Source: Candidatus Magasanikiibacteriota bacterium (GTDB lineage: Bacteria > Patescibacteriota > Patescibacteriia > Magasanikbacterales > GWA2-37-8). Taken from it: a stretch of DNA of 64,000 nucleotides. Positions 1,695 to 57,832 of the stretch are shown here, in pieces. The position numbers were made by a program, and so were the translations under genes. Each line of letters starts with the position of its first letter. Within the stretch, counting starts at the first letter, position 1. The stretch spans positions 2,762 to 66,761 of the forward strand of contig JAHFHX010000004.1 of the NCBI GenBank assembly GCA_023246655.1. Reading direction: 5' to 3'. The notes below the pieces were generated by a model. It did not search any database and was not told where the DNA came from. It saw only the letters and a program-made list of their open reading frames with translations.

Positions 1695-2033
1695 ATGCCG
1701 TATCGTGATCTTGAGGGTGAACCTTCTGAGCTAGCACGAAAAAGTCCTGCTATTCTGGAATTAGAACAACATATCGCGGAGCTGGGTACAATTGGCATTC
1801 AAATACCGGAAAATGTTTGGGTTGGTTTTATTATTAACTTTCCTCCTGGTTCTGATAGCAACCCCATACAGTTGCGGGATGTTCGACTTTACTGCGAACA
1901 ATATGGTATTCTTGAACCCTCTACAGCCTATAATGCCACCTTAATTATGTGGTATAGTAATAAACTAAAAAAATGGGTGCTTAAAACAACCAACAAAGGA
2001 AAGGTCTTAGAGGTCAAGAATGAAGGAATTTAA
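1695..2033 (+). CDS. hypothetical protein
   Basis: A 112-aa ORF lies tightly coupled 3 nt after the nfo stop and is followed directly by a terminator hairpin. Confidence 0.4.
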   Translation: MPYRDLEGEPSELARKSPAILELEQHIAELGTIGIQIPENVWVGFIINFPPGSDSNPIQLRDVRLYCEQYGILEPSTAYNATLIMWYSNKLKKWVLKTTNKGKVLEVKNEGI

Positions 2034-2066
2034 AAACCATCCCGACTGAGTCGGGATGGTTTTTCG
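2034..2066 (+). terminator. Rho-independent terminator hairpin CCATCCCGACTGAGTCGGGATGG followed by a T-run
   Basis: A perfect 9-bp stem is followed by TTTTTCGTTT. The same hairpin recurs at about 21003 and 34582. Confidence 0.7.
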
Positions 2067-2131
2067 TTTCGGCATCCAAATTAGTATCTTAGAATTTTTG
2101 GTAGTTGGCGACGCTCGTGAAAAGCCTCGCC

Positions 2132-9441: not shown

Positions 9442-10476
9442 TTACCACTCTAGTGTTCCACCGACCTGATATTCAGTTACGCGCGTTTCGAAGAAGTTTT
9501 TTTCTTTATTAAGATCAATCGCCTCACTCATCCAGGGGAAGGGGTTGGGGGTGTTATATTGAGCGGGGAGATTAACACGCCCTAGGCGGCGATCTGCAAT
9601 GTATTCAATATATTTACGGAAACCCTCGGCGTTCATTCCAAAAATTCCTTTGGGAAAAACCTCAGCAGCAAATTTTGCTTCCAGATCTACCGCTTGTTTG
9701 ACTAGATCAATAGTATGTTCCTGAAATTCTGGGGTCCAGAGTTCGGGCTGCTCCTCTTTAATGGCATTAATAATATTGATGCCAAAATTGAGGTGCTGTG
9801 ACTCGTCGCGCATAATATATTGAATTTGCTCAGCGGAGCCGATCATTTTATTTTGGCGTTGGAATCCAAACATAACTGCAAAGGAACTATAGAAAAAGAT
9901 TCCTTCCAAGACAAGTGAGAAGACCACCATGTTTTCTAGAAATTTTTGATCCGCGTCAAATGTTCCAGTTTTGAAGTCAGGATTAAAAATGCCCTCATTA
10001 AAACTAAGGATAAATGCGTCTTTGTTATAGATTGAGTCCACTTCGCGGTACATGTTGAAAATCTCTCCTTCATCGAGACCGAGACTTTCGACAATGTATT
10101 GGTAGGCATGGGTATGAATGGCTTCCTCATAAGCTTGGCGAAGCAGGTACATGCGGCATTCCGGGGAGGTAATGTGACGGTACATGGCCAGGACTACATT
10201 ATTGGCAGCAATGGAATCGGCGGTTGTAAAAAAGCCTAGAACGGTTTTAAGGGCTTTGTGCTCATCTGGAGTGAGAAGGGTAGGAGAATTCCATTGTTCA
10301 ATGTCTTTTTGCATGCTAATTTCCGTGGGGAGCCAGTGGTTGGCATTGCCAACATTATAGGCCTCCCAAGCCCAGGTGTGTTTCATGGGGTAGAGCTGAA
10401 TAACGTCCGCATCCGCGCCGTTGATGACGCGACGGGCATTGATGTCGACCTTGTTAGAGGTTTTGGTGATAGGCAT
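9442..10476 (-). CDS. nrdB: ribonucleoside-diphosphate reductase beta subunit (ferritin-like di-iron R2)
   Basis: The gene is about 344 aa and carries the EEAIHTHAY and EGIFFYSSFAV helices with Glu and His iron ligands. It lies downstream of nrdA in the same operon. Confidence 0.85.
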   Translation of the reverse strand: MPITKTSNKVDINARRVINGADADVIQLYPMKHTWAWEAYNVGNANHWLPTEISMQKDIEQWNSPTLLTPDEHKALKTVLGFFTTADSIAANNVVLAMYRHITSPECRMYLLRQAYEEAIHTHAYQYIVESLGLDEGEIFNMYREVDSIYNKDAFILSFNEGIFNPDFKTGTFDADQKFLENMVVFSLVLEGIFFYSSFAVMFGFQRQNKMIGSAEQIQYIMRDESQHLNFGINIINAIKEEQPELWTPEFQEHTIDLVKQAVDLEAKFAAEVFPKGIFGMNAEGFRKYIEYIADRRLGRVNLPAQYNTPNPFPWMSEAIDLNKEKNFFETRVTEYQVGGTLEW

Positions 10477-10562: not shown

Positions 10563-13382
10563 TTATCCTTGGCATGATTCACAACCGGGGTCATTAATCG
10601 CGCAGGCTTTGGGTGTGGAAGTGGTAGAAGCAGTGGTGACCGTGGGCGGTGGGGGAGGCATGGAAACGGCTTGCGGTTGGCCCTTTTGCATCTGGCGCGT
10701 GTGCGTGCTACCATAGTCGGACGTATTGACGGTTGATTTTTCTACCTGTGAGGCAGCCAGGGTGCGAAGGTAGTAGGTGGTTTTAAGTCCCATTTCCCAG
10801 GCATACATATAGATATCGCTTAAATCTTTACCAGAGGTGCCCTGGAAGAAGATATTGATAGATTGCGATTGATCAATCCATTTGGCACGATAAGCTGCTG
10901 ATTTTACAATCCAGCGTGGGTCAATTTCAAAGACTTCTTTATATTTAGTTCGTAGCGATCCAGGAATTTCGTGAATTTCCGAGATATTACCATCATGGTA
11001 TTTAATTTTGCCGAGCATCTCAAAGTCCCAGAGCCCTAATTTTTTTAGATCTTCTACGAGGTAAGAATTGATGATGACAAAGTCGCCAGCTTGATTGGAT
11101 TTGACATAAATATTTTTATAAATTGGTTCCACCGTGGGAATGCAGCCAACAATATTGGCCGTGGTAGCGGTTGGAGCCACCGCCATACAATTGGAGTTGC
11201 GCATTCCGTATTGTTTAATCGCGCCACGGACAACGTCCCAATTAAGGGTGGTGGTGCGCTCTACCGGAATAGCCATGCCCCGTTCTTTTTCCAGAAGTTC
11301 AATCGTATCCAGTGGCAGAATTCCGCGATCCCACTTGGAGCCGCGATAGGTTTCATAGGCGCCGCGTTCGCGGGCTAACTCCGTTGAGGCGAGGATGGTG
11401 GAATATGATACTACCTCCATGCTGTAGTCTGAGAATTTTACACACTCTTCACTATCAAAATTAATTCCTAGTTGATAGAGTGCGTCCTGGAAGCCGCGGA
11501 GACCCAAGCCAACCGGGCGGTGACGAAGGTTTGAACGCCGGGCATCTTCGGTAGGGTAATAATTGATATCAATAACATTATCAAGCATGCGCATGGCAAT
11601 TGATACCACTTCTTGCACCAACGCGGTATCAAATTTACCGTTGGTAACAAACTTGGCAAAGTTTAAGGAACCAAGATTACAAACTGCAGTTTCATTTTCT
11701 GAGGTGTTTAAGGTGATCTCGGTGCAAAGGTTGGAGTTGTGGACAACACCGATATGATCTTGAGGGGAGCGCAGGTTTGATGGATCTTTAAAGGTAATCC
11801 ATGGATGGCCGGTCTCAAAGAGCATCGCGAGCATTTTTTTCCAAAGGTCTCGCGCCTTCAGGCGTTTAAAGAGGGTAACTTTACCATCATCCGCCATTTT
11901 TTCATATTTTGTGTATTGTTCTTCAAAACGTCGTCCATAGATATGGTGTAAATCGGGCGTTTCATCGGGGCTAAATAATGTCCAATTACCATCTTCGCGA
12001 ACTCGCTGCATGAATAAATCAGGGATCCAGTTAGCAGTATCCATGTCATGGGTTCTAATGCGGTCGTCGCCAGTATTTTTGCGTAGCTCTAAAAACCGTT
12101 CAACATCATAGTGCCACGTTTCCAGATACACACAGGCAGCACCGCGCCGACGGCCGCTTCGGTTGATGGCGACTGTTACATCATTGGCAATTTTGAGGAA
12201 GGGAATGACGCCTTGAGACTCGACACCCGTGCCCTTAATAAAGGCTCCGGTGCCGCGCAGGTTTGTCCAGTCGGTACCAATGCCCCCGGACCACTTAGAA
12301 AGCTGAGCGTTATCCGCATAGGTTTTGAAAATATTATCAAGCGAATCAGAAACGGTATTAAGGTAACAAGACGAAAGCTGCGGTTTGGGCGTGCCGGCGT
12401 GAAACAGCGTGGGGGTAGAGGGGGTGTAGAGGAGCTTCGACATGATGTCGTAGAATTTAATGGTCCATTCAGTTTTCTTTTCACGCTCCTGCAGTGCCGT
12501 GCCCATGGCGATGCGCATCCAGAACATCTGAGGTGTTTCCAAGGTTTGTTTGGTGGTGTGGTCACGAATAAAATAGCGATCGTATAAAGTTTGCAAACCA
12601 AGATATACAAATAAATCATCGCGGTCAATTACCAAGGCATTACTGAGCTGTTCAAGGTCAAAGGCCAGTAGGCGCGGGTCGAGTCGTTCAATTTCTACCC
12701 CCTGCTTAATATTTTTGATAAAAGCAGCCCGATATTGTGCCTGTAATTTTGAGAAATCAATGACCTCGGCTCCGATCGTATCTTTATAATTAGTAAAGAG
12801 CAATAAGCGCGCGGCGACTTTAGCATAGTTTGGATCTTGCTCAATCATGGCCCGGGCTGTCATTATAAGGGCCTTAGCAATATCGGCAGTTGTAATACCT
12901 TCATGGAGTTCCGACCGGCATTGATTAAGGACGGCCTCGATATCCACGCTGGTTTCTAATCCTTTTATGGCGTAGCTTAATGACCGGCGTAGTTTCTCTA
13001 GAGAAAATGCTTCTTTGTTGCCGGCACGTTTGGTTATGAGGAGCGTGTTTTTTTCAATTTTTTCAAGGATTTGTTTTTTCTTTTCGGCGCGTTCTTTGGC
13101 ATGTTCATAACGATACAGAATGTAGGCTTTGGCAACGTCATAATACCCTTGTTGCATTAATTCACGCTCCACAAAGTCCTGGACATTTTCAACGGCCGGG
13201 GGAGTATCAGCAAAGAAACGTTCAATAGTACCAAGTACAGCATCGACGACCAACTTTGCTTTGTCTACTTCGAGCGTACCACGCACTTCTTGAAAGGCCT
13301 TGCTAATAGCGAGGGAGATTTTTTCAGCATTAAAATCCACCATGCTACCGTCGCGTTTTTTTATTTTAGTAAGAGCCCCCAT
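10563..13382 (-). CDS. nrdA: ribonucleoside-diphosphate reductase alpha subunit with an N-terminal ATP-cone
   Basis: The 939-aa protein starts with an ATP-cone (VKRDGSMVDFNAEKISLAI), has catalytic NLCTEI and CNLGSLN motifs, and ends in a C-terminal Cys pair (CESC). Confidence 0.85.
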   Translation of the reverse strand: MGALTKIKKRDGSMVDFNAEKISLAISKAFQEVRGTLEVDKAKLVVDAVLGTIERFFADTPPAVENVQDFVERELMQQGYYDVAKAYILYRYEHAKERAEKKKQILEKIEKNTLLITKRAGNKEAFSLEKLRRSLSYAIKGLETSVDIEAVLNQCRSELHEGITTADIAKALIMTARAMIEQDPNYAKVAARLLLFTNYKDTIGAEVIDFSKLQAQYRAAFIKNIKQGVEIERLDPRLLAFDLEQLSNALVIDRDDLFVYLGLQTLYDRYFIRDHTTKQTLETPQMFWMRIAMGTALQEREKKTEWTIKFYDIMSKLLYTPSTPTLFHAGTPKPQLSSCYLNTVSDSLDNIFKTYADNAQLSKWSGGIGTDWTNLRGTGAFIKGTGVESQGVIPFLKIANDVTVAINRSGRRRGAACVYLETWHYDVERFLELRKNTGDDRIRTHDMDTANWIPDLFMQRVREDGNWTLFSPDETPDLHHIYGRRFEEQYTKYEKMADDGKVTLFKRLKARDLWKKMLAMLFETGHPWITFKDPSNLRSPQDHIGVVHNSNLCTEITLNTSENETAVCNLGSLNFAKFVTNGKFDTALVQEVVSIAMRMLDNVIDINYYPTEDARRSNLRHRPVGLGLRGFQDALYQLGINFDSEECVKFSDYSMEVVSYSTILASTELARERGAYETYRGSKWDRGILPLDTIELLEKERGMAIPVERTTTLNWDVVRGAIKQYGMRNSNCMAVAPTATTANIVGCIPTVEPIYKNIYVKSNQAGDFVIINSYLVEDLKKLGLWDFEMLGKIKYHDGNISEIHEIPGSLRTKYKEVFEIDPRWIVKSAAYRAKWIDQSQSINIFFQGTSGKDLSDIYMYAWEMGLKTTYYLRTLAASQVEKSTVNTSDYGSTHTRQMQKGQPQAVSMPPPPPTVTTASTTSTPKACAINDPGCESCQG

Positions 13383-20928: not shown

Positions 20929-21002
20929 TCGCCTCTTAGACATAAAAGCCTTCCGAGCGGCTTACAATAGCTCGGAATCCACAAAGTGCATTTTGTTCGA
21001 AT

Positions 21003-21038
21003 AAAAAACCATCCCGACTGAGTCCGGATGGTTTTTTG
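21003..21038. terminator. bidirectional terminator CCATCCCGACTGAGTCCGGATGG between convergent genes
   Basis: The same hairpin family as at 2034 and 34582, flanked by A-run and T-run. Confidence 0.65.
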
Positions 21039-21058
21039 TTATAAATAATTACGCTTTG

Positions 21059-21373
21059 TTAATCTCGAGCTGGCTTCTTGGCGGCGTCTTTTTCTGCCTT
21101 TTCTTTTTGCAATTGGCTGCCTATTTCCCTTAAGAAATCCATGGCCTCGGCATACCGATTGCCGAGAACAAAAGTTTGTCGAGGATAATTTCGTAGAATA
21201 TCAATGATGTGAGCAATGCTACTATCGTTCAGCAGCAATTTGCATTGCCGGTAAATTTCGGTTCGAATACGTTTTGCTACTGATTCATCAGCAGGCTGTA
21301 TTTCTAATCGTTCTCGACTCTTTTTTATAGATAAGCGAGGGGCTGGCCATGATTGTTCGTTAGCTTCTGACAT
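21059..21373 (-). CDS. hypothetical protein
   Basis: A 104-aa ORF. Confidence 0.4.
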   Translation of the reverse strand: MSEANEQSWPAPRLSIKKSRERLEIQPADESVAKRIRTEIYRQCKLLLNDSSIAHIIDILRNYPRQTFVLGNRYAEAMDFLREIGSQLQKEKAEKDAAKKPARD

Positions 21374-25184: not shown

Positions 25185-26207
25185 TTAGAGATTAATTATT
25201 TCACCATATGTTTTTTGGTACCGTACGCAAAACGCTTCTTTTGTAAACGCATGTTCCTGTGTTCCATACGTCTCAATAGCATAACTCGCCGCGACGGAAC
25301 CGATTTGGGCGCAGGTTTTGAGAGGGAGGTTGTTTTCAAAACCCACCAGAAAGCCTGCGCGGAAAGCGTCGCCGGCGCCGGTGGGGTCGTCCACGGATTG
25401 GGGTGGGCAGGGGGCGACGTTGATTTCCTCGCCGTCTTGCGTAGTAATGATGGAACCTTTTTCACCAAGGGTCGTGATGAGAATGTTGGTTTCTTTTAAA
25501 ATATCCGCAGCGCTCCAACTGGTACGGTCTTGGAGGAGTTTCATTTCGTAGTCATTGCCAATAACAAAATGGCTTTTGCTTATCATACTCCGGAGTTCGA
25601 TGTCGGTGAAAGCAGTTATTTGTTGACCCGGGTCGAACATGGCCGGGATGCCGCGTTCATGGCATTCATGGAGATGCTTCATCATGACGGTTTTGTCGGT
25701 GGGGGAGATGATGGCGAGGTTTACTTTTTTGTCATCCCGAGTGAGGTTCGCACCGACGAGGGATCCCTGTCCGTCGATTGGTGATTGAGCCAGAGATTCC
25801 TCCTTCGTCGTCGGAATGACAGTTGGGAGGTGAGGCGTTTCTTCGAGCGGCCCATTGTAAAAGGCGGTTACCTGGTTGTCATCCATGTCGGTGGTGATGT
25901 AGGCGGAGGCGGAGAGTTTGGTTTTGTCTTGATAGATGTGGTCAGTTGCGATGTCGAATCTTTTAAAGTGATCGAGGTAGTCTTTCGCGTCTTTTCCAAC
26001 AGCAGAAACAATCATGGGGTTAGCGCCCAACATTTTTATCGTAAAGGCAATGTTGCCGGCGGTGCCGCCCCAACTGCGTTCTAATTTATCCACCACAAAA
26101 CAGACGTTAAGAATATGAATCTGTTCTGGCATGATGTGATTCTTAAAGCTGTCCGGAAAATTCATGATGTAATCGTAGGCGAGGGAGCCGGAGATGAGGA
26201 TGGACAT
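25185..26207 (-). CDS. PfkB-family carbohydrate/nucleoside kinase carrying an in-frame family-A repeat insertion
   Basis: The PfkB signature DPTGAGDAFRAGFL is present. The extra segment TVIPTTKEESLAQSPIDGQGSLVGANLTRDDKK is encoded by the repeat. Confidence 0.75.
   Translation of the reverse strand: MSILISGSLAYDYIMNFPDSFKNHIMPEQIHILNVCFVVDKLERSWGGTAGNIAFTIKMLGANPMIVSAVGKDAKDYLDHFKRFDIATDHIYQDKTKLSASAYITTDMDDNQVTAFYNGPLEETPHLPTVIPTTKEESLAQSPIDGQGSLVGANLTRDDKKVNLAIISPTDKTVMMKHLHECHERGIPAMFDPGQQITAFTDIELRSMISKSHFVIGNDYEMKLLQDRTSWSAADILKETNILITTLGEKGSIITTQDGEEINVAPCPPQSVDDPTGAGDAFRAGFLVGFENNLPLKTCAQIGSVAASYAIETYGTQEHAFTKEAFCVRYQKTYGEIINL
25731..25822. repeat. family-A nested-palindrome element (GTCATCCCGAG...GGAATGACAG)
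   Basis: It shares both termini and the inner GGGATCCCTGTC / GCCAGAGATTCC inverted repeat with the copies at 37842, 43470/43810, 54131 and 54502. Confidence 0.85.
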
Positions 26208-34563: not shown

Positions 34564-34581
34564 AAACGATTTTTAAAATAA

Positions 34582-34612
34582 AACATCCCGACTGAGTCGG
34601 GATGTTTTTATT
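34582..34612 (+). terminator. terminator hairpin ACATCCCGACTGAGTCGGGATGT followed by a T-run
   Basis: Third copy of the CATCCCGACTGAGTCGGGATG hairpin. Confidence 0.7.
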
Positions 34613-37841: not shown

Positions 37842-37990
37842 ATACCGTTTTGTCATCCCGAGCAAGCCTTCCGCCAAAGGCGGACACAGCGCGAGGCCTG
37901 CCCGCCTCTGGCGGGAGGGATCTCTCTGTCCGTCGTTGGTTGATTGAGACAGAGATTCCTCACCCCTGCGACGGGGATTCGGAATGACAA
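37842..37990. repeat. family-A element, long intergenic variant (149 bp)
   Basis: It starts GTCATCCCGAGC, contains GGGATCTCTCTGTCCGTC...GAGACAGAGATTCCTC...CGACGGGGATTCGGAATGACAAG, and has an extra internal hairpin. Confidence 0.85.
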
Positions 37991-42240: not shown

Positions 42241-42609
42241 CTATTTCAATTTAATGAGCGCCGATTTTTTAGCACCATATTTATATTTCATCCATTTGGC
42301 GCTTTCCTCAAGCATCCACTCACCATATTTATTATCCGGGACTAACTGAAAATCAACCGACCATTTTTCGTTTTTTTTAGTTGGTTTAGTTTTGAGGAAT
42401 ATCACAACGTCAATATCTTGCGGTCGTATTTTTGCGGTGGTAAAACTACCGAGCATGTGTACCGAAGCAATGGGGAGAATTTTTTCTAGTTTTTTCATTA
42501 CCCGCTCAAAGTGTTTCCACATTTCTTTACGATATTTTGAGTTTAACAATTCTTTAGGAATGGTTGGCTTCATAATTTTAATTATTTTATTCATTCCCCT
42601 CCCCAACAA
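42241..42609 (-). CDS. minimal nucleotidyltransferase (Pol-beta superfamily)
   Basis: The GS...D.D signature is present (LGSFTTAKIRPQDIDVVIFL). Confidence 0.55.
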   Translation of the reverse strand: MLGRGMNKIIKIMKPTIPKELLNSKYRKEMWKHFERVMKKLEKILPIASVHMLGSFTTAKIRPQDIDVVIFLKTKPTKKNEKWSVDFQLVPDNKYGEWMLEESAKWMKYKYGAKKSALIKLK

Positions 42610-42646
42610 GGGGAGGGGCGCAGGGTGGGGTTATCGGGGAATTAAT

Positions 42647-43456: not shown

Positions 43457-43804
43457 TTATTTTAGATTTGTCATCCCGAGCGAGCCTCGCGGCGACGAGG
43501 GATCCCTGTCCGTTATGTCCCAATACAAATCTTTCCATTTTGGGTTCATACTTTGAATTAATTTAATTTTTTTCTCTCGTCGCCAGGCTTTTATTTCTTT
43601 CTCACGATAGATGGCCTGTTTAATACCATTGTAATGTTCATAATAAACAGGTTTTTTGGTTTTATATTTTTTACTGAAACCACCACCTACCTCATCTTTG
43701 TGTTGTTCGACGCGTTCAATTAAATCATTGGTTACACCAACGTAGATCACATAACTAATACTCGCCATAATGTACGTGTAGAAATTGTAGTGTAATCGCG
43801 GCAT
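43457..43804 (-). CDS. GIY-YIG nuclease-domain protein (115 aa) nested in a family-A repeat
   Basis: The N-terminus YVIYVGVTNDLIERVEQH...YYEHY is the GIY-YIG fold. The last 15 codons (DRDPSSPRGSLGMTN) are encoded by the left arm of the repeat. Confidence 0.8.
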   Translation of the reverse strand: MPRLHYNFYTYIMASISYVIYVGVTNDLIERVEQHKDEVGGGFSKKYKTKKPVYYEHYNGIKQAIYREKEIKAWRREKKIKLIQSMNPKWKDLYWDITDRDPSSPRGSLGMTNLK

Positions 43805-43919
43805 AGCGGTTGATTGGACAGAGATTCCTCAGTCGCGCGAGTTTCTTCGGAATGACAGTTGGGTGGTCTTGATTGAGACAGAGATCCCTCACCCCTGCGA
43901 CGGGGATTCGGGATGACAA
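43457..43919 (-). mobile_element. candidate mobile cassette: family-A left arm, GIY-YIG gene, and two tandem family-A right arms
   Basis: The left arm GTCATCCCGAGCGAGCCTCGCGGCGACGAGGGATCCCTGTCCGTT lies at 43470-43514. Two right arms (TTGATTGGACAGAGATTCCTC...GGAATGACAG at 43810-43858 and TTGATTGAGACAGAGATCCCTC...GGGATGACAA at 43869-43919) flank the gene. The cassette sits between the ABC ATPase and permease genes. Confidence 0.6.
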
Positions 43920-53807: not shown

Positions 53808-55139
53808 ATGATGGAAAATGTCCTAAAAATTCTCATCCTCCACGACTATTTTCTCTACAAAGGCGGCGGGGAGCGGTTGGTGATTAGTCTTGCCAAAAAT
53901 TTGGGGGCGGATGTGGCGACGGCGTTTATTGCCAAGGATGCTTTTGATCCGCGTGAGCACGGGATTAGGACGATTGAATTATATAAAGAGAAGGCGTGGT
54001 CGCGTGTGCCCGGGTTTCGATATTTGCAGGTGCAGTCGTCGTTTTTGTTTAAGACGGGGTTTGTAAAGAATTATGATGTAGTGATTTATAGTGGCGATTG
54101 TTTGACGGCAGCACTTCGAACTGGCGTATTGTCATCCCGAGCGAGGCTCGCGCCGACGAGGGATCTCTGTCCGTCGGTGAGTGAGCCAGAGATTCTTCGC
54201 TCTGCTCAGAATGACAGTAAAAAATCAGAAAGACGGCCAGTGAACATCGCTTACATGCACACGCCGCCTCGGCATTTGTATGATTTGTATGACGAGAGAT
54301 TGCGCTCATATCCCTGGTGGAAGAAAATTATTTTTGTGCCGTTTGTCTTGTTTAACCGGTGGAGATTTTTAGCCTTGGCACGAATGATGGATAGGATTGT
54401 GACGAATTCGAAAAATACTCAAGCGCGGATAAAAAAGTATCTGGGACTCGATTCGATAGTAGTGTATCCGCCGTGTGACACTCTTCCGTTCAAAAATCTC
54501 CGTCATTCCGAGCGAGGCCTCGCGGCCGACGAGGAATCTCTGTCCGTTTCGTCAACGAGTGAGACAGAGATTCCTCCTGCGGTCGGGATGACAAGTGTTG
54601 GCGATTATTTTTTCTCCTGGGCGCGATTGTATGATGTGAAACGGGTTCACCTCATCGCGGAGGCATTTGCCAAGATGCCAGACAAAAAAGTAGTCATTGC
54701 ATCGCAGGGCCCAGAGTTTGAGCGGATAAAAAAAATTGTTGAGGGGCACAGCAATATTACGCTTCTAGGTTGGATTGATGACCAACAATTGCTGGAGTAT
54801 TTGGGCAAATCTTTAGCCACGATTTACATTCCCATGGCTGAGGATTTTGGGATGACGGCGGTGGAATCCATGCAAGCGGGGAAGCCGGTGATTGGGGTGG
54901 CGGAGGGAGGACTTTTAGAAATCATTGAAGATAATAAAAATGGGTTGATGTTGAAACCGGATTTTACGGTTGACGATTTACGATTGAAGATTTTAGAAAT
55001 GACACCAGAGCGGGTGCGGGTGATGGAAGCAGCGTGTTATGAAACGGCGAAGAAGTTTAGTGAAGCGGCATTTGTGGAGGGGATGAGGGAGGTGATTGAG
55101 AAATACCAAATACCAAATACCAAATACCAAAGCTGTTGA
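53808..55139 (+). CDS. GT4-family glycosyltransferase with two in-frame family-A repeat insertions
   Basis: The C-terminal GT4 EX7E region (GMTAVESMQAGKPVIGVAEGGLLEII) is present. The inserted segments read VLSSRARLAPTRDLCPSVSEPEILRSAQNDS and RHSERGLAADEESLSVSSTSETEIPPAVGMTS. Confidence 0.75.
   Translation: MMENVLKILILHDYFLYKGGGERLVISLAKNLGADVATAFIAKDAFDPREHGIRTIELYKEKAWSRVPGFRYLQVQSSFLFKTGFVKNYDVVIYSGDCLTAALRTGVLSSRARLAPTRDLCPSVSEPEILRSAQNDSKKSERRPVNIAYMHTPPRHLYDLYDERLRSYPWWKKIIFVPFVLFNRWRFLALARMMDRIVTNSKNTQARIKKYLGLDSIVVYPPCDTLPFKNLRHSERGLAADEESLSVSSTSETEIPPAVGMTSVGDYFFSWARLYDVKRVHLIAEAFAKMPDKKVVIASQGPEFERIKKIVEGHSNITLLGWIDDQQLLEYLGKSLATIYIPMAEDFGMTAVESMQAGKPVIGVAEGGLLEIIEDNKNGLMLKPDFTVDDLRLKILEMTPERVRVMEAACYETAKKFSEAAFVEGMREVIEKYQIPNTKYQSC
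54131..54217. repeat. family-A element (87 bp) translated in-frame within the glycosyltransferase gene
   Basis: GTCATCCCGAGCGAGGCTCGCGCCGACGAGGGATCTCTGTCCGTC...GCCAGAGATTCTTCGCTCTGCTCAGAATGACAG. Confidence 0.85.
54502..54594. repeat. family-A element (93 bp) translated in-frame within the same gene, in a different frame relative to the repeat
   Basis: GTCATTCCGAGCGAGGCCTCGCGGCCGACGAGGAATCTCTGTCCGTT...GAGACAGAGATTCCTCCTGCGGTCGGGATGACAAG. Confidence 0.85.
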
Positions 55140-57022: not shown

Positions 57023-57832
57023 TTACCGTGAGGTCAAATAGTAATTCTGTTCTTTTTTAGAAAATTTTTCAATGGCATATCGTAGCATGGTGCGGGGCAT
57101 TGTTTGATGATGGTGGTTAAGGAATTTTTTTAGCGTCGGCGGCGATTTTTTTCCCACTTCGCGTAGCATCCAGCCGCAGGCTTTCTGAATCAGATCGTGT
57201 TTGTCAGTGAGGAGGAGTTTGGAAATTTTGAGCGTTTCGTCAAAATGATTCGCGCGGATGAAAGCAAAGGTAGCAACGATGGCAATGCGACGTTCCCAGA
57301 GGTTGGTGGAGCGGGCGAGGGTGACGAGGACAGCCAACCGCGGCCGAACCCCCCTCTCTATCTCCCCCCTATAAGGGGGGAGAGGGCCATCAATGCCCTC
57401 CCCTACAAGGGGAGGGACGGAGGGCGGGGTTTTCGTCTCGCGCATTTGGTTGAGTAAGTACTCGCCGACAATCTGCGGGGCGGAGGTGTCGACTAAATCC
57501 CAATTGTTAATTCGTTTGGTGTTTTTGAGGTAGAAGTTGTAAATTTTTTTCTTCTGTTTATTATCCCCGATTTGAAATTGACGTACCAGGATGATAAGGC
57601 CAGTGAAACGCTCCTCATGAACTTTTGATTTGAGTAGTTTTTGTATGTCGGCGAGTGAAAGATCGTAAAATTTTTTGGCGATGGTTCGTTGCTTCGGTAC
57701 GGTGAGCCCAAGAAATAGGTCGCCATGGCCGTATTCACCCGGTGCGGTTTTAAAAAAGCCAGCATAGATTTTGGCTTTGGTGGGGTTGGCATGGGAGCGA
57801 AGAATTTTTTTGAGTTCGGTGAGATAATACAT
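57023..57832 (-). CDS. AlkD-like HEAT-repeat DNA alkylation repair glycosylase carrying a family-B insertion
   Basis: The sequence MYYLTELKKILRSHANPTKAKIYAGFFKT...NNWDLVD matches AlkD. The segment RETKTPPSVPPLVGEGIDGPLPPYRGEIERGVRPRL is encoded by tandem GC hairpins. Confidence 0.7.
   Translation of the reverse strand: MYYLTELKKILRSHANPTKAKIYAGFFKTAPGEYGHGDLFLGLTVPKQRTIAKKFYDLSLADIQKLLKSKVHEERFTGLIILVRQFQIGDNKQKKKIYNFYLKNTKRINNWDLVDTSAPQIVGEYLLNQMRETKTPPSVPPLVGEGIDGPLPPYRGEIERGVRPRLAVLVTLARSTNLWERRIAIVATFAFIRANHFDETLKISKLLLTDKHDLIQKACGWMLREVGKKSPPTLKKFLNHHHQTMPRTMLRYAIEKFSKKEQNYYLTSR
57345..57435. repeat. family-B tandem GC hairpins (CCCCCCTCTCTATCTCCCCCCTATAAGGGGGGAGAGGG...CCCTCCCCTACAAGGGGAGGG)
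   Basis: A GC island inside an AT-rich gene. Confidence 0.8.

Follow-up and report, generated by a model that had tools for sequence, protein, structure and literature searches.

A window of 64,000 nucleotides from the genome of a small, groundwater-type bacterium of the Patescibacteria (the window being the whole stretch of DNA analysed here) contains an intact gene for a glycosyltransferase (GT) of family GT4, in which two extra segments of about 90 bp lie in the reading frame. These segments are probably copies of a non-coding palindromic repeat that are read through at permissive loops of the enzyme, and a GIY-YIG nuclease encoded in the same window is the likely partner of the repeat.

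According to the mechanism that we propose, the repeat would be an inverted pair of (T/C)GTCAT-tagged hairpins of the CGTC-REP, dRS3-NTS or RPE-4/6 kind (RPE, Rickettsia palindromic element). The partner enzyme would be a GIY-YIG nuclease of the Ssn type, encoded within a full-length element with the layout arm-gene-arm, from which the ~90-bp copies would derive by deletion of the gene, and this nuclease may spread the repeats. Both GT copies would have been inserted in, or kept only at, two permissive loops, where a length divisible by three (3n) and a stop-free host frame would let the ribosome read through them. The additional residues would then be part of the mature protein, with a neutral or nearly neutral effect.

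The host gene and its insert-free orthologues

The open reading frame (ORF) that hosts both inserts (53808-55139, plus strand) runs without interruption through 443 codons, and the NCBI gene call P0001 gives a protein of 442 amino acids (aa) starting at 53811. Pfam identifies Glycos_transf_1 at 2.4e-23 and also Glyco_trans_1_4. The nearest database proteins belong to Candidatus Magasanikbacteria and other Patescibacteria and are mostly 360-370 aa long, and the window protein is 58-79% identical to its orthologues. It retains all 98 columns that are invariant among 23 orthologues, including the E345-x7-E353 region. The Pfam matches, the orthologues and the predicted fold with its solved-structure matches (below) identify the ORF as an intact GT4/GT-B glycosyltransferase of a Magasanikbacteria-like genome.

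In a comparison with 63 orthologues (23 from databases and 40 from loci of species-representative genomes), the extra GT residues are confined to two places. Site 1 lies between SGDCLxA..R and NIAYMHTPPRH and site 2 between PPCDTLPFKNL and G-x-G-D-YFFSWARLY; in 45 of the 63 orthologues both sites are of the short form, with 11-15 residues at site 1 and 10 at site 2. At site 2 the window gene carries a clean 93-nt insertion (54501-54593), which adds 31 codons (residues 232-262) directly after a Leu codon. The excess at site 1 amounts to 36 residues (106-141); the repeat codes for about 29 of them, and the other seven may be older debris. Judged from this comparison, the GT segments are inserts and not ancestral loops.

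The repeat family in the window

Copy 1 (54131-54217, plus strand, its right end falling at 54215/7) has 87 bp or 29 codons and covers residues ~109-137. Copy 2, also on the plus strand, runs from GTCAT to ATGAC over 54502-54592, with a repeat-based extent of 93 bp (54502-54594) or 31 codons. The two share the termini GTCATYCCGAGCGAGG...TCRGRATGAC and the inner inverted repeat GAGGRATCTCTGTC / GACAGAGATTCYTC, and are 78-80% identical overall. Copy 2 has a perfect inner stem of 14 bp, and its DNA folds at -29.9 kcal/mol (z = -5.4). The terminus pattern occurs six times in the window against 0.55 expected, a number reached by none of 100 shuffles, and self-BLAST between copies gives E values from 1e-10 to 1e-20. 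The GT inserts are 78-93% identical in DNA to the repeat copies of a kinase gene, an intergenic spacer and the flanks of the GIY-YIG gene. All full copies consist of an inverted pair, GTCAT...ATGAC, and the flanks of 16 copies follow the form yT-GTCAT...ATGAC-Ar, where copy 2 has CGTCAT and the others TGTCAT.

The kinase copy (25731-25822 or, more narrowly, 25731-25820, plus strand) lies in the PfkB-family ORF 25185-26207 (minus strand; Pfam PfkB at 2.6e-37), and the orthologue without a copy, in locus L025, shows a gap of 26 residues. The spacer copy (37852-37988, plus strand) is longer, 137 bp with extra internal hairpins, and is situated between a TrhO-like gene and a downstream gene for a membrane protein of 150 aa. 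The same spacer holds a long copy in L001 (5773-5891) as well; the two are 67% identical, the proteins of both genomes being only ~69% identical, and either they stem from one old insertion common to both genomes or the spacer is a further reused site.

The host genes read the repeat differently. Copy 1 is translated in repeat frame +1 as SSRARLAPTRDLCPSVSEPEILRSAQND and copy 2 in repeat frame +2 as HSERGLAADEESLSVSSTSETEIPPAVGMT, while in the kinase the copy is translated from the minus strand to give VIPTTKEESLAQSPIDGQGSLVGANLTRDD, and in the GIY-YIG tail the left arm of its own repeat (43470-43513) is read in yet another minus frame as ...DRDPSSPRGSLGMT. This agrees with the initial annotation in that the two GT copies leave the ORF unbroken, add 29 and 31 residues (31 at site 2 and ~29 repeat-coded of 36 at site 1, when measured against orthologues) and are read in different repeat frames, and that the PfkB and GIY-YIG genes use further ones. 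Its statement that the element is stop-free in at least four combinations of frame and orientation stands for the family, four being used across four window copies, but not for any single copy, since, in each of the three window copies that lie within genes, just two of the six frames are entirely open, a number close to the chance expectation for 30 codons of such a composition. Open reading is thus a trait of the family and not of the single copy, and survivorship explains the pattern with no design feature.

At gathering thresholds Rfam finds one tRNA in the whole window and nothing at the repeats. A search with the three insert peptides concatenated returned no match in a set of 5.8 billion proteins, from which the source protein was likewise not retrieved.

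Frame constraint on intragenic copies

At least 12 intragenic copies were found, in five gene families and several genomes, and 12 of 12 are in frame, 3n long and stop-free. In addition to the window genes, the hosts are TrhO of L001 (the window and L024 orthologues being empty), MiaA of L011, L010 and L014 (seven orthologues empty), RlmN of L018, the GT orthologues of L001 and L002, and three other GT4 paralogues, where the flanking sequence indicates that the site is apparently the equivalent inter-domain linker. Wherever orthologues free of the insert are available for comparison, intragenic copies have them. The seven copies outside ORFs are all situated in genuine spacers, with complete genes on either side, and among the window and the fetched Patescibacteria loci there is no copy that splits a gene.

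With about two of six frames open and one third of lengths divisible by three, a random intragenic insertion would be expected to comply in about one case in nine. Twelve of twelve compliant copies therefore indicate that the frame matters. Translated and tolerated peptides are favoured over removal from the mRNA because removal would impose neither the 3n length nor the absence of stops; the compliant pattern is what selection on the translated product predicts, and not what mRNA excision does.

GTCAT-type inserts in other GT4 paralogues of related genomes are located at 9351-9427 in L006, 12102-12174 in L046, ~6150-6220 in L037 and within 4427-5674 in L005. These inserts, with peptides of the CHSERSEES... 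type, come just past the last strand of the N-domain, which is the position of site 2 in the window gene.

Position of the inserts in the predicted fold

An AlphaFold2 model of the GT, built on the orthologue alignment, has a predicted template modelling score of 0.81 and a predicted local distance difference test (pLDDT) score of at least 90 at 281 residues. Three stretches alone drop below 50, namely residues 113-137 and 233-262, which correspond to the two inserts, and the seven C-terminal residues. Among solved structures, the model is closest to BshA, HepE and MshA, all of them GT4/GT-B enzymes. In the model, insert 1 is in a loop that connects helix 99-113 with strand 145-149 in the N-terminal Rossmann domain, and insert 2 in the linker from the N- to the C-terminal Rossmann domain, before strand 267-271. 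The model thus suggests that the inserts most likely extend an intact GT-B fold by two surface loops, 29 and 31 residues long and disordered. As surface loops they may be harmless, a low pLDDT being no proof of disorder.

The C-terminal codons of the GT (55101-55128) consist of four copies of the 7-nt unit AAATACC, translated as ...KYQIPNTKYQSC. The orthologues are without this tail, which has pLDDT below 50 (437-443) and could be prone to slippage. On the opposite strand, ORFs of 86 aa (54049-54309, minus strand) and 65 aa (54552-54749, minus strand) cross both inserts (e.g. ...CHSEQSEESLAHSPTDRDPSSARASLGM...), and gene callers may report such ORFs as spurious hypothetical proteins.

The GIY-YIG nuclease and its flanking arms

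About 10 kb upstream of the GT gene lies a gene for a single-domain GIY-YIG nuclease (43457-43804, minus strand), of 115 aa as ORF and 103 aa in the database call; on the 115-aa ORF Pfam finds GIY-YIG only, at 6.9e-10. The gene is bracketed by a left arm (43470-43513, plus strand), which shares 93% identity with its counterpart in GT copy 1, and a right arm (43808-43858, plus strand). The arms are 80-93% identical to the GT copies, and the ORF ends with ~14 codons that translate the left arm. The two arms joined together make 93 nt, with 80-81% identity to the intragenic copies. The joined arms thus rebuild a 93-nt copy, and the ~90-bp copies consequently look like the gene-bearing element minus its gene. 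The initial annotation mentions the GIY-YIG tail, though not the placement of this gene within an element. A solo right half-copy (43869-43919, plus strand), 96% identical to the right end of the spacer copy 37852-37988, adjoins the element.

The arms accompany the gene elsewhere. All of the five closest homologues of the nuclease (69-81% identity) end in a translated arm (...ITDRDPSS...RSG or ...SLGMT), and distant homologues, most of them without annotation and some labelled as Korobacteraceae or Falkowbacteria, have the ends ...RSGRDD, ...SVGMT or ...LARND, which are translations of ...CGGRATGAC. At 80 metagenomic homologue loci, GTCATYYB was present not more than 150 nt upstream at 43 and RRRATGAC on the downstream side at 45, with both motifs at 35; the background for either is 0.63 per kb or ~0.06 per search interval and orientation. 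The arm-gene-arm architecture thus recurs across phyla.

A comparable arrangement is found in Neisseria gonorrhoeae, where nine copies of the repeat NTS, forming inverted pairs of 105-109 nt, occur on both sides of a gene in 1.46 kb. The window nuclease matches this gene in tblastn at E 4e-17 with 42-43% identity. By its architecture the gonococcal gene, which comes from an unannotated record, would be ssnA. A PDB sequence search with the window protein gave only a weak match to UPF0213 (1zg2, E 0.069), and NCBIfam has no model for it. From the sequence comparisons, the GIY-YIG protein is likely an Ssn-like nuclease and the candidate cognate enzyme of the repeat.

The gonococcal locus (L161; NZ_CP119142.1, 1881122-1882585) comes from one of two records listed as plasmids in PLSDB, the other being NZ_CP119140.1, which are in fact N. 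gonorrhoeae chromosomes of 2.17 Mb. The putative ssnA homologue of the L161 strain seems disrupted, its longest ORF having 71 aa and starting at 655, and the frame of an upstream ATG meets a stop.

Repeated use of the same loops

In other lineages the same two GT loops hold unrelated palindromic inserts. In the L001 gene, site 1 is occupied by a G/C-rich double-hairpin element and site 2 by a GTCAT-type copy, and the L003 gene has one G-rich element of ~96 nt at both sites (10298-10417 and 10700-10795), read in the same frame (SETSPQPSPLRWGGGPITPPPPQGRRQEEDS). At site 2, the gene of L002 carries a half-copy with adjacent AATGACAA debris, that of L005 an unrelated palindrome, and several other orthologues an insert of the LNDKPALGSSHPPTPLKGGF type, the peptide of which is well conserved in four. 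In an approximate neighbour-joining tree the insert-bearing sequences are scattered, and the insert-free P0005 nests in the clade of the window protein. The window site-2 copy is 79-81% identical to unlinked copies as against 73% to the site-2 copy of L001.

Repeated gain, precise loss and replacement by gene conversion are all possible routes to this reuse, and selection of permissive loops accounts for part of the pattern. Adjacent remnants, such as the half-copy at 43869-43919 and, in L002, the AATGACAA debris, give a hint of elements landing beside older copies as well.

Two TrhO orthologues, in L001 (4745-5767, with a GTCAT-type copy) and in L003 (2707-3750, with a G-rich element), have inserts at one and the same site, both within a shared extra segment (KxVCxNC...CLxSREP) that is missing from the window and L024 orthologues, which suggests layered insertions. 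Two candidates for larger elements, at 5466-6179 in L037 and a 1.9-kb GT match in L011, were rejected, as both are tandem GT4 paralogues.

Relation to known repeat systems

The CGTC-tagged REPs defined by Di Nocera et al. 2013 (PMC3733652) often have TGTC or CCTC as the tag, have stems of 8-9 bp starting with AT around a loop of 4-5 nt, and occur mainly as inverted dimers; the same study equates them with Neisseria dRS3 and with RPE-4 and RPE-6 of Rickettsia conorii, and reports that intragenic dimers encode 20-30 residues, sometimes twice per ORF. The window family shares with these dimers the terminal (C/T)GTC tag, the AT-starting stem, the organisation in inverted pairs of ~90-110 bp, the many copies per genome and the occurrence of some copies in frame within genes, where they add 20-30 residues. 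It differs in having stems of ~5 bp around a partly structured loop of 11-25 nt, and Patescibacteria are not among the five phyla listed in that study. By its layout, the window repeat is a divergent member of the CGTC-REP, dRS3-NTS and RPE-4/6 kind, and is assigned to no named family.

The Ssn proteins of Chenal et al. 2025 (PMC11893778) are single-domain GIY-YIG proteins of family cd10448, described as site-specific nucleases for single-stranded DNA, which bind and cut the Neisseria NTS repeat (CGTCATTCCCGCGMAVGCGGGAATCYRG). Across phyla their ssnA genes are flanked by such motifs, an architecture termed 'identical to' that of an insertion sequence; neither intragenic translated copies nor Patescibacteria are covered. 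As in the NTS/SRM and Ssn system, a single-domain GIY-YIG protein of ~95-115 aa is encoded here between GTCAT-tagged hairpin repeats that are scattered genome-wide, and the gonococcal inverted NTS pairs of ~105-109 nt have the same layout as the 85-93-nt window copies. The criterion applied for an Ssn protein was a single GIY-YIG domain in <150 aa and homology to SsnA at E <1e-10, and the window protein has 115 aa and an E value of 4e-17, here against the gonococcal orthologue and not against N. meningitidis SsnA itself. The window repeats differ in lying outside the published SRM expression, and the nuclease activity is in our case a prediction only.

Rickettsia palindromic elements, with which the initial annotation had drawn an analogy, and the protein-coding palindromes of Wolbachia are likewise in-frame palindromes in unrelated housekeeping genes. 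RPE-1, attributed to Ogata et al. 2000 and 2002, is reportedly ~150 bp long and lies in frame within unrelated housekeeping genes, where its positions are proposed to suit the fold. The window family resembles RPE-1 in its host with a reduced genome and in the proposed fold-compatible sites, but is read in at least four frames and therefore has no conserved peptide, whereas each RPE encodes one according to a 2024 review of MITEs (transposable elements of the miniature inverted-repeat type; PMC10969869). The analogy is borne out by the hairpin-dimer layout, through the equation of RPE-4 and RPE-6 with CGTC REPs in PMC3733652 and not through a sequence comparison. With classical MITEs such as Correia/NEMIS, RUP and Nezha, the family has in common that its copies are small, non-coding, bounded by terminal inverted repeats and seemingly derived from a gene-bearing element by internal deletion. 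It differs from them in that no target-site duplication was seen and that the associated gene encodes a GIY-YIG nuclease and not a DDE or Y1 transposase. In a limited library, where absence is weak evidence, we found no literature linking GIY-YIG proteins with Rickettsia palindromic elements, and nothing relevant on palindromic in-frame inserts in Patescibacteria or the candidate phyla radiation.

Alternative explanations

The initial annotation had allowed for either tolerated peptide insertions or post-transcriptional removal, and it is tolerated insertion that the twelve compliant copies favour. Removal or skipping of the repeats at the RNA or translation level, by excision and religation of the hairpin or by ribosomal bypassing, would leave the enzyme without the inserts. 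The stable RNA folds with short flanks (-45.6 and -53.7 kcal/mol) are in line with such a process, as is the z score of the copy 2 DNA (-5.4), and titles in the literature indicate that introns are unusually common in Patescibacteria. Removal would, however, free the copies from the frame constraint, yet all of the at least 12 intragenic copies are 3n long and stop-free and no gene is split; Rfam has no match at the repeats, and we know of no self-splicing RNA of ~90 nt. Expression of RPE-decorated Rickettsia proteins has, moreover, been reported (cited in PMC3733652), and altogether we hold removal to be extremely unlikely. The possibility that the additional residues represent a variable loop, old and specific to the lineage, with a likeness to the repeats that is coincidental or due to gene conversion, is effectively refuted. 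It could account for the short site-1 extensions of the LGWKFFSKK type in several orthologues and for the seven window residues that are not repeat-coded, but both inserts are palindromic, with DNA 78-93% identical to the kinase, spacer and GIY-YIG-flanking copies. Orthologues with the same extra residues and no repeat had been named at the outset as a finding that would overturn the insertion reading; most orthologues are without the extra residues.

It is very unlikely that the GT is decaying or inactive, the inserts being damage that has so far brought no stop codon. Two inserts and seven further residues at site 1, an unshared tail of 7-nt repeats and a site 2 that falls in a hinge would be in line with such a gene, but the ORF of 443 codons is intact, the identity to orthologues is 58-79%, 98 of 98 invariant columns are kept and the fold is confidently predicted. 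Inserts of this kind also occur in related genomes within the housekeeping genes MiaA, RlmN and TrhO, so that they are no mark of dying genes. The initial annotation had pointed to pseudogenes and to structure prediction as further checks; no sign of decay was found, and the inserts come out as low-confidence loops in a confident core. At a protein identity of only 69% to the nearest orthologue, saturation of synonymous sites is to be expected. That the inserts are kept as useful, either as surface loops or as DNA sites for the Ssn nuclease that promote recombination and diversification of envelope genes, we consider unlikely. The same two loops are filled in many lineages, GT4 paralogues are repeatedly targeted at the linker, and the LNDKPALGSSHPPTPLKGGF... 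insert peptide is well conserved in four orthologues, all of which would suit a function, as would the clustering of Neisseria NTS repeats near particular genes and the modulation of transformation by NTS and SsnA (PMC11893778). Inserts at the same site are, however, unrelated between lineages, most orthologues have none, the inserts are predicted to be disordered, and unrelated housekeeping enzymes are targeted as well, which fits tolerance better than function.

Several points weigh against the reading of the GT segments as translated copies of a repeat spread by the GIY-YIG nuclease. To our knowledge, not even Neisseria SsnA has a known mechanism of transposition. SsnA has been shown to cut single-stranded DNA and to modulate transformation only, and not to move repeats (PMC11893778), and the published SRM expression, HGTCWYN(0-2)YYVSBRHN(0-5)WNVSBRGN(0-2)RNCYNB, has 0 matches on either strand of the window. 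The arm stem is only 5 bp (ATYCY/RGRAT), around a loop of 11-25 nt with a small hairpin of its own, and neither a target-site duplication nor a direct repeat is seen in the flanks of 16 copies. No copies are near-identical and thus demonstrably recent, and at 78-93% likeness current mobility is unproven. On the protein side, the presence of the inserts in the mature enzyme would follow from the frame constraint; a low pLDDT means no confident prediction only, by which harmlessness is not demonstrated, and site 2 is the hinge between the domains, the closure of which an insert there could affect.

More broadly, it is possible, although doubtful at present, that Ssn-type GIY-YIG proteins are the missing mobilising enzymes of CGTC REPs and RPE-like elements. 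The Patescibacteria dimers would then have been repeatedly inserted, precisely lost and re-inserted at a few permissive loops, preferentially beside remnants, and would form a general and ongoing source from which essential enzymes of reduced genomes gain new surface loops.

Novelty and implications

Both intragenic translated CGTC-REP/RPE dimers and the partnership of GIY-YIG genes with hairpin repeats are known already. What is new is the host, Patescibacteria being a phylum outside earlier surveys, the presence of translated copies and a gene-bearing element together in one 64-kb window, and the reuse of two GT loops across orthologues. Protein-coding palindromic repeats were once termed 'unique to Rickettsia' and were later found in a few other phyla; if our interpretation is correct, they extend to the candidate phyla radiation, where they affect tRNA-modification enzymes, a kinase and several glycosyltransferases of small genomes. 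It would also join two threads, by tying translated copies to an Ssn-type GIY-YIG gene inside the full-length element. On the practical side, such inserts would inflate and fragment protein-family alignments and, in metagenome-assembled genomes, give rise on the opposite strand to spurious 'hypothetical' ORFs.

Additional repeats in the window

A second and unrelated palindromic family (CCCTCCCC-AACAA-GGGGAGGG...) is present in frame in an ORF of 269 aa (57023-57832, minus strand) at ~57390-57435, where it adds ...TPPSVPPLVGEGIDGPLPPYRGE... to the protein. Its sibling copy at 42591-42636 overlaps the annotated start of the ORF 42241-42609 (minus strand). A G-rich hairpin of this second type occurs at GT site 1 in L001, at both sites in L003 and at a third GT position in L046. 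A terminator-like hairpin, AAAACCATCCCGACTGAGTCGGGATGGTTTTT, has three copies in the window (2032-2068, 21004-21040 and 34577-34609), and the one near 21004 lies within a larger imperfect palindrome of 103 nt (20969-21071).

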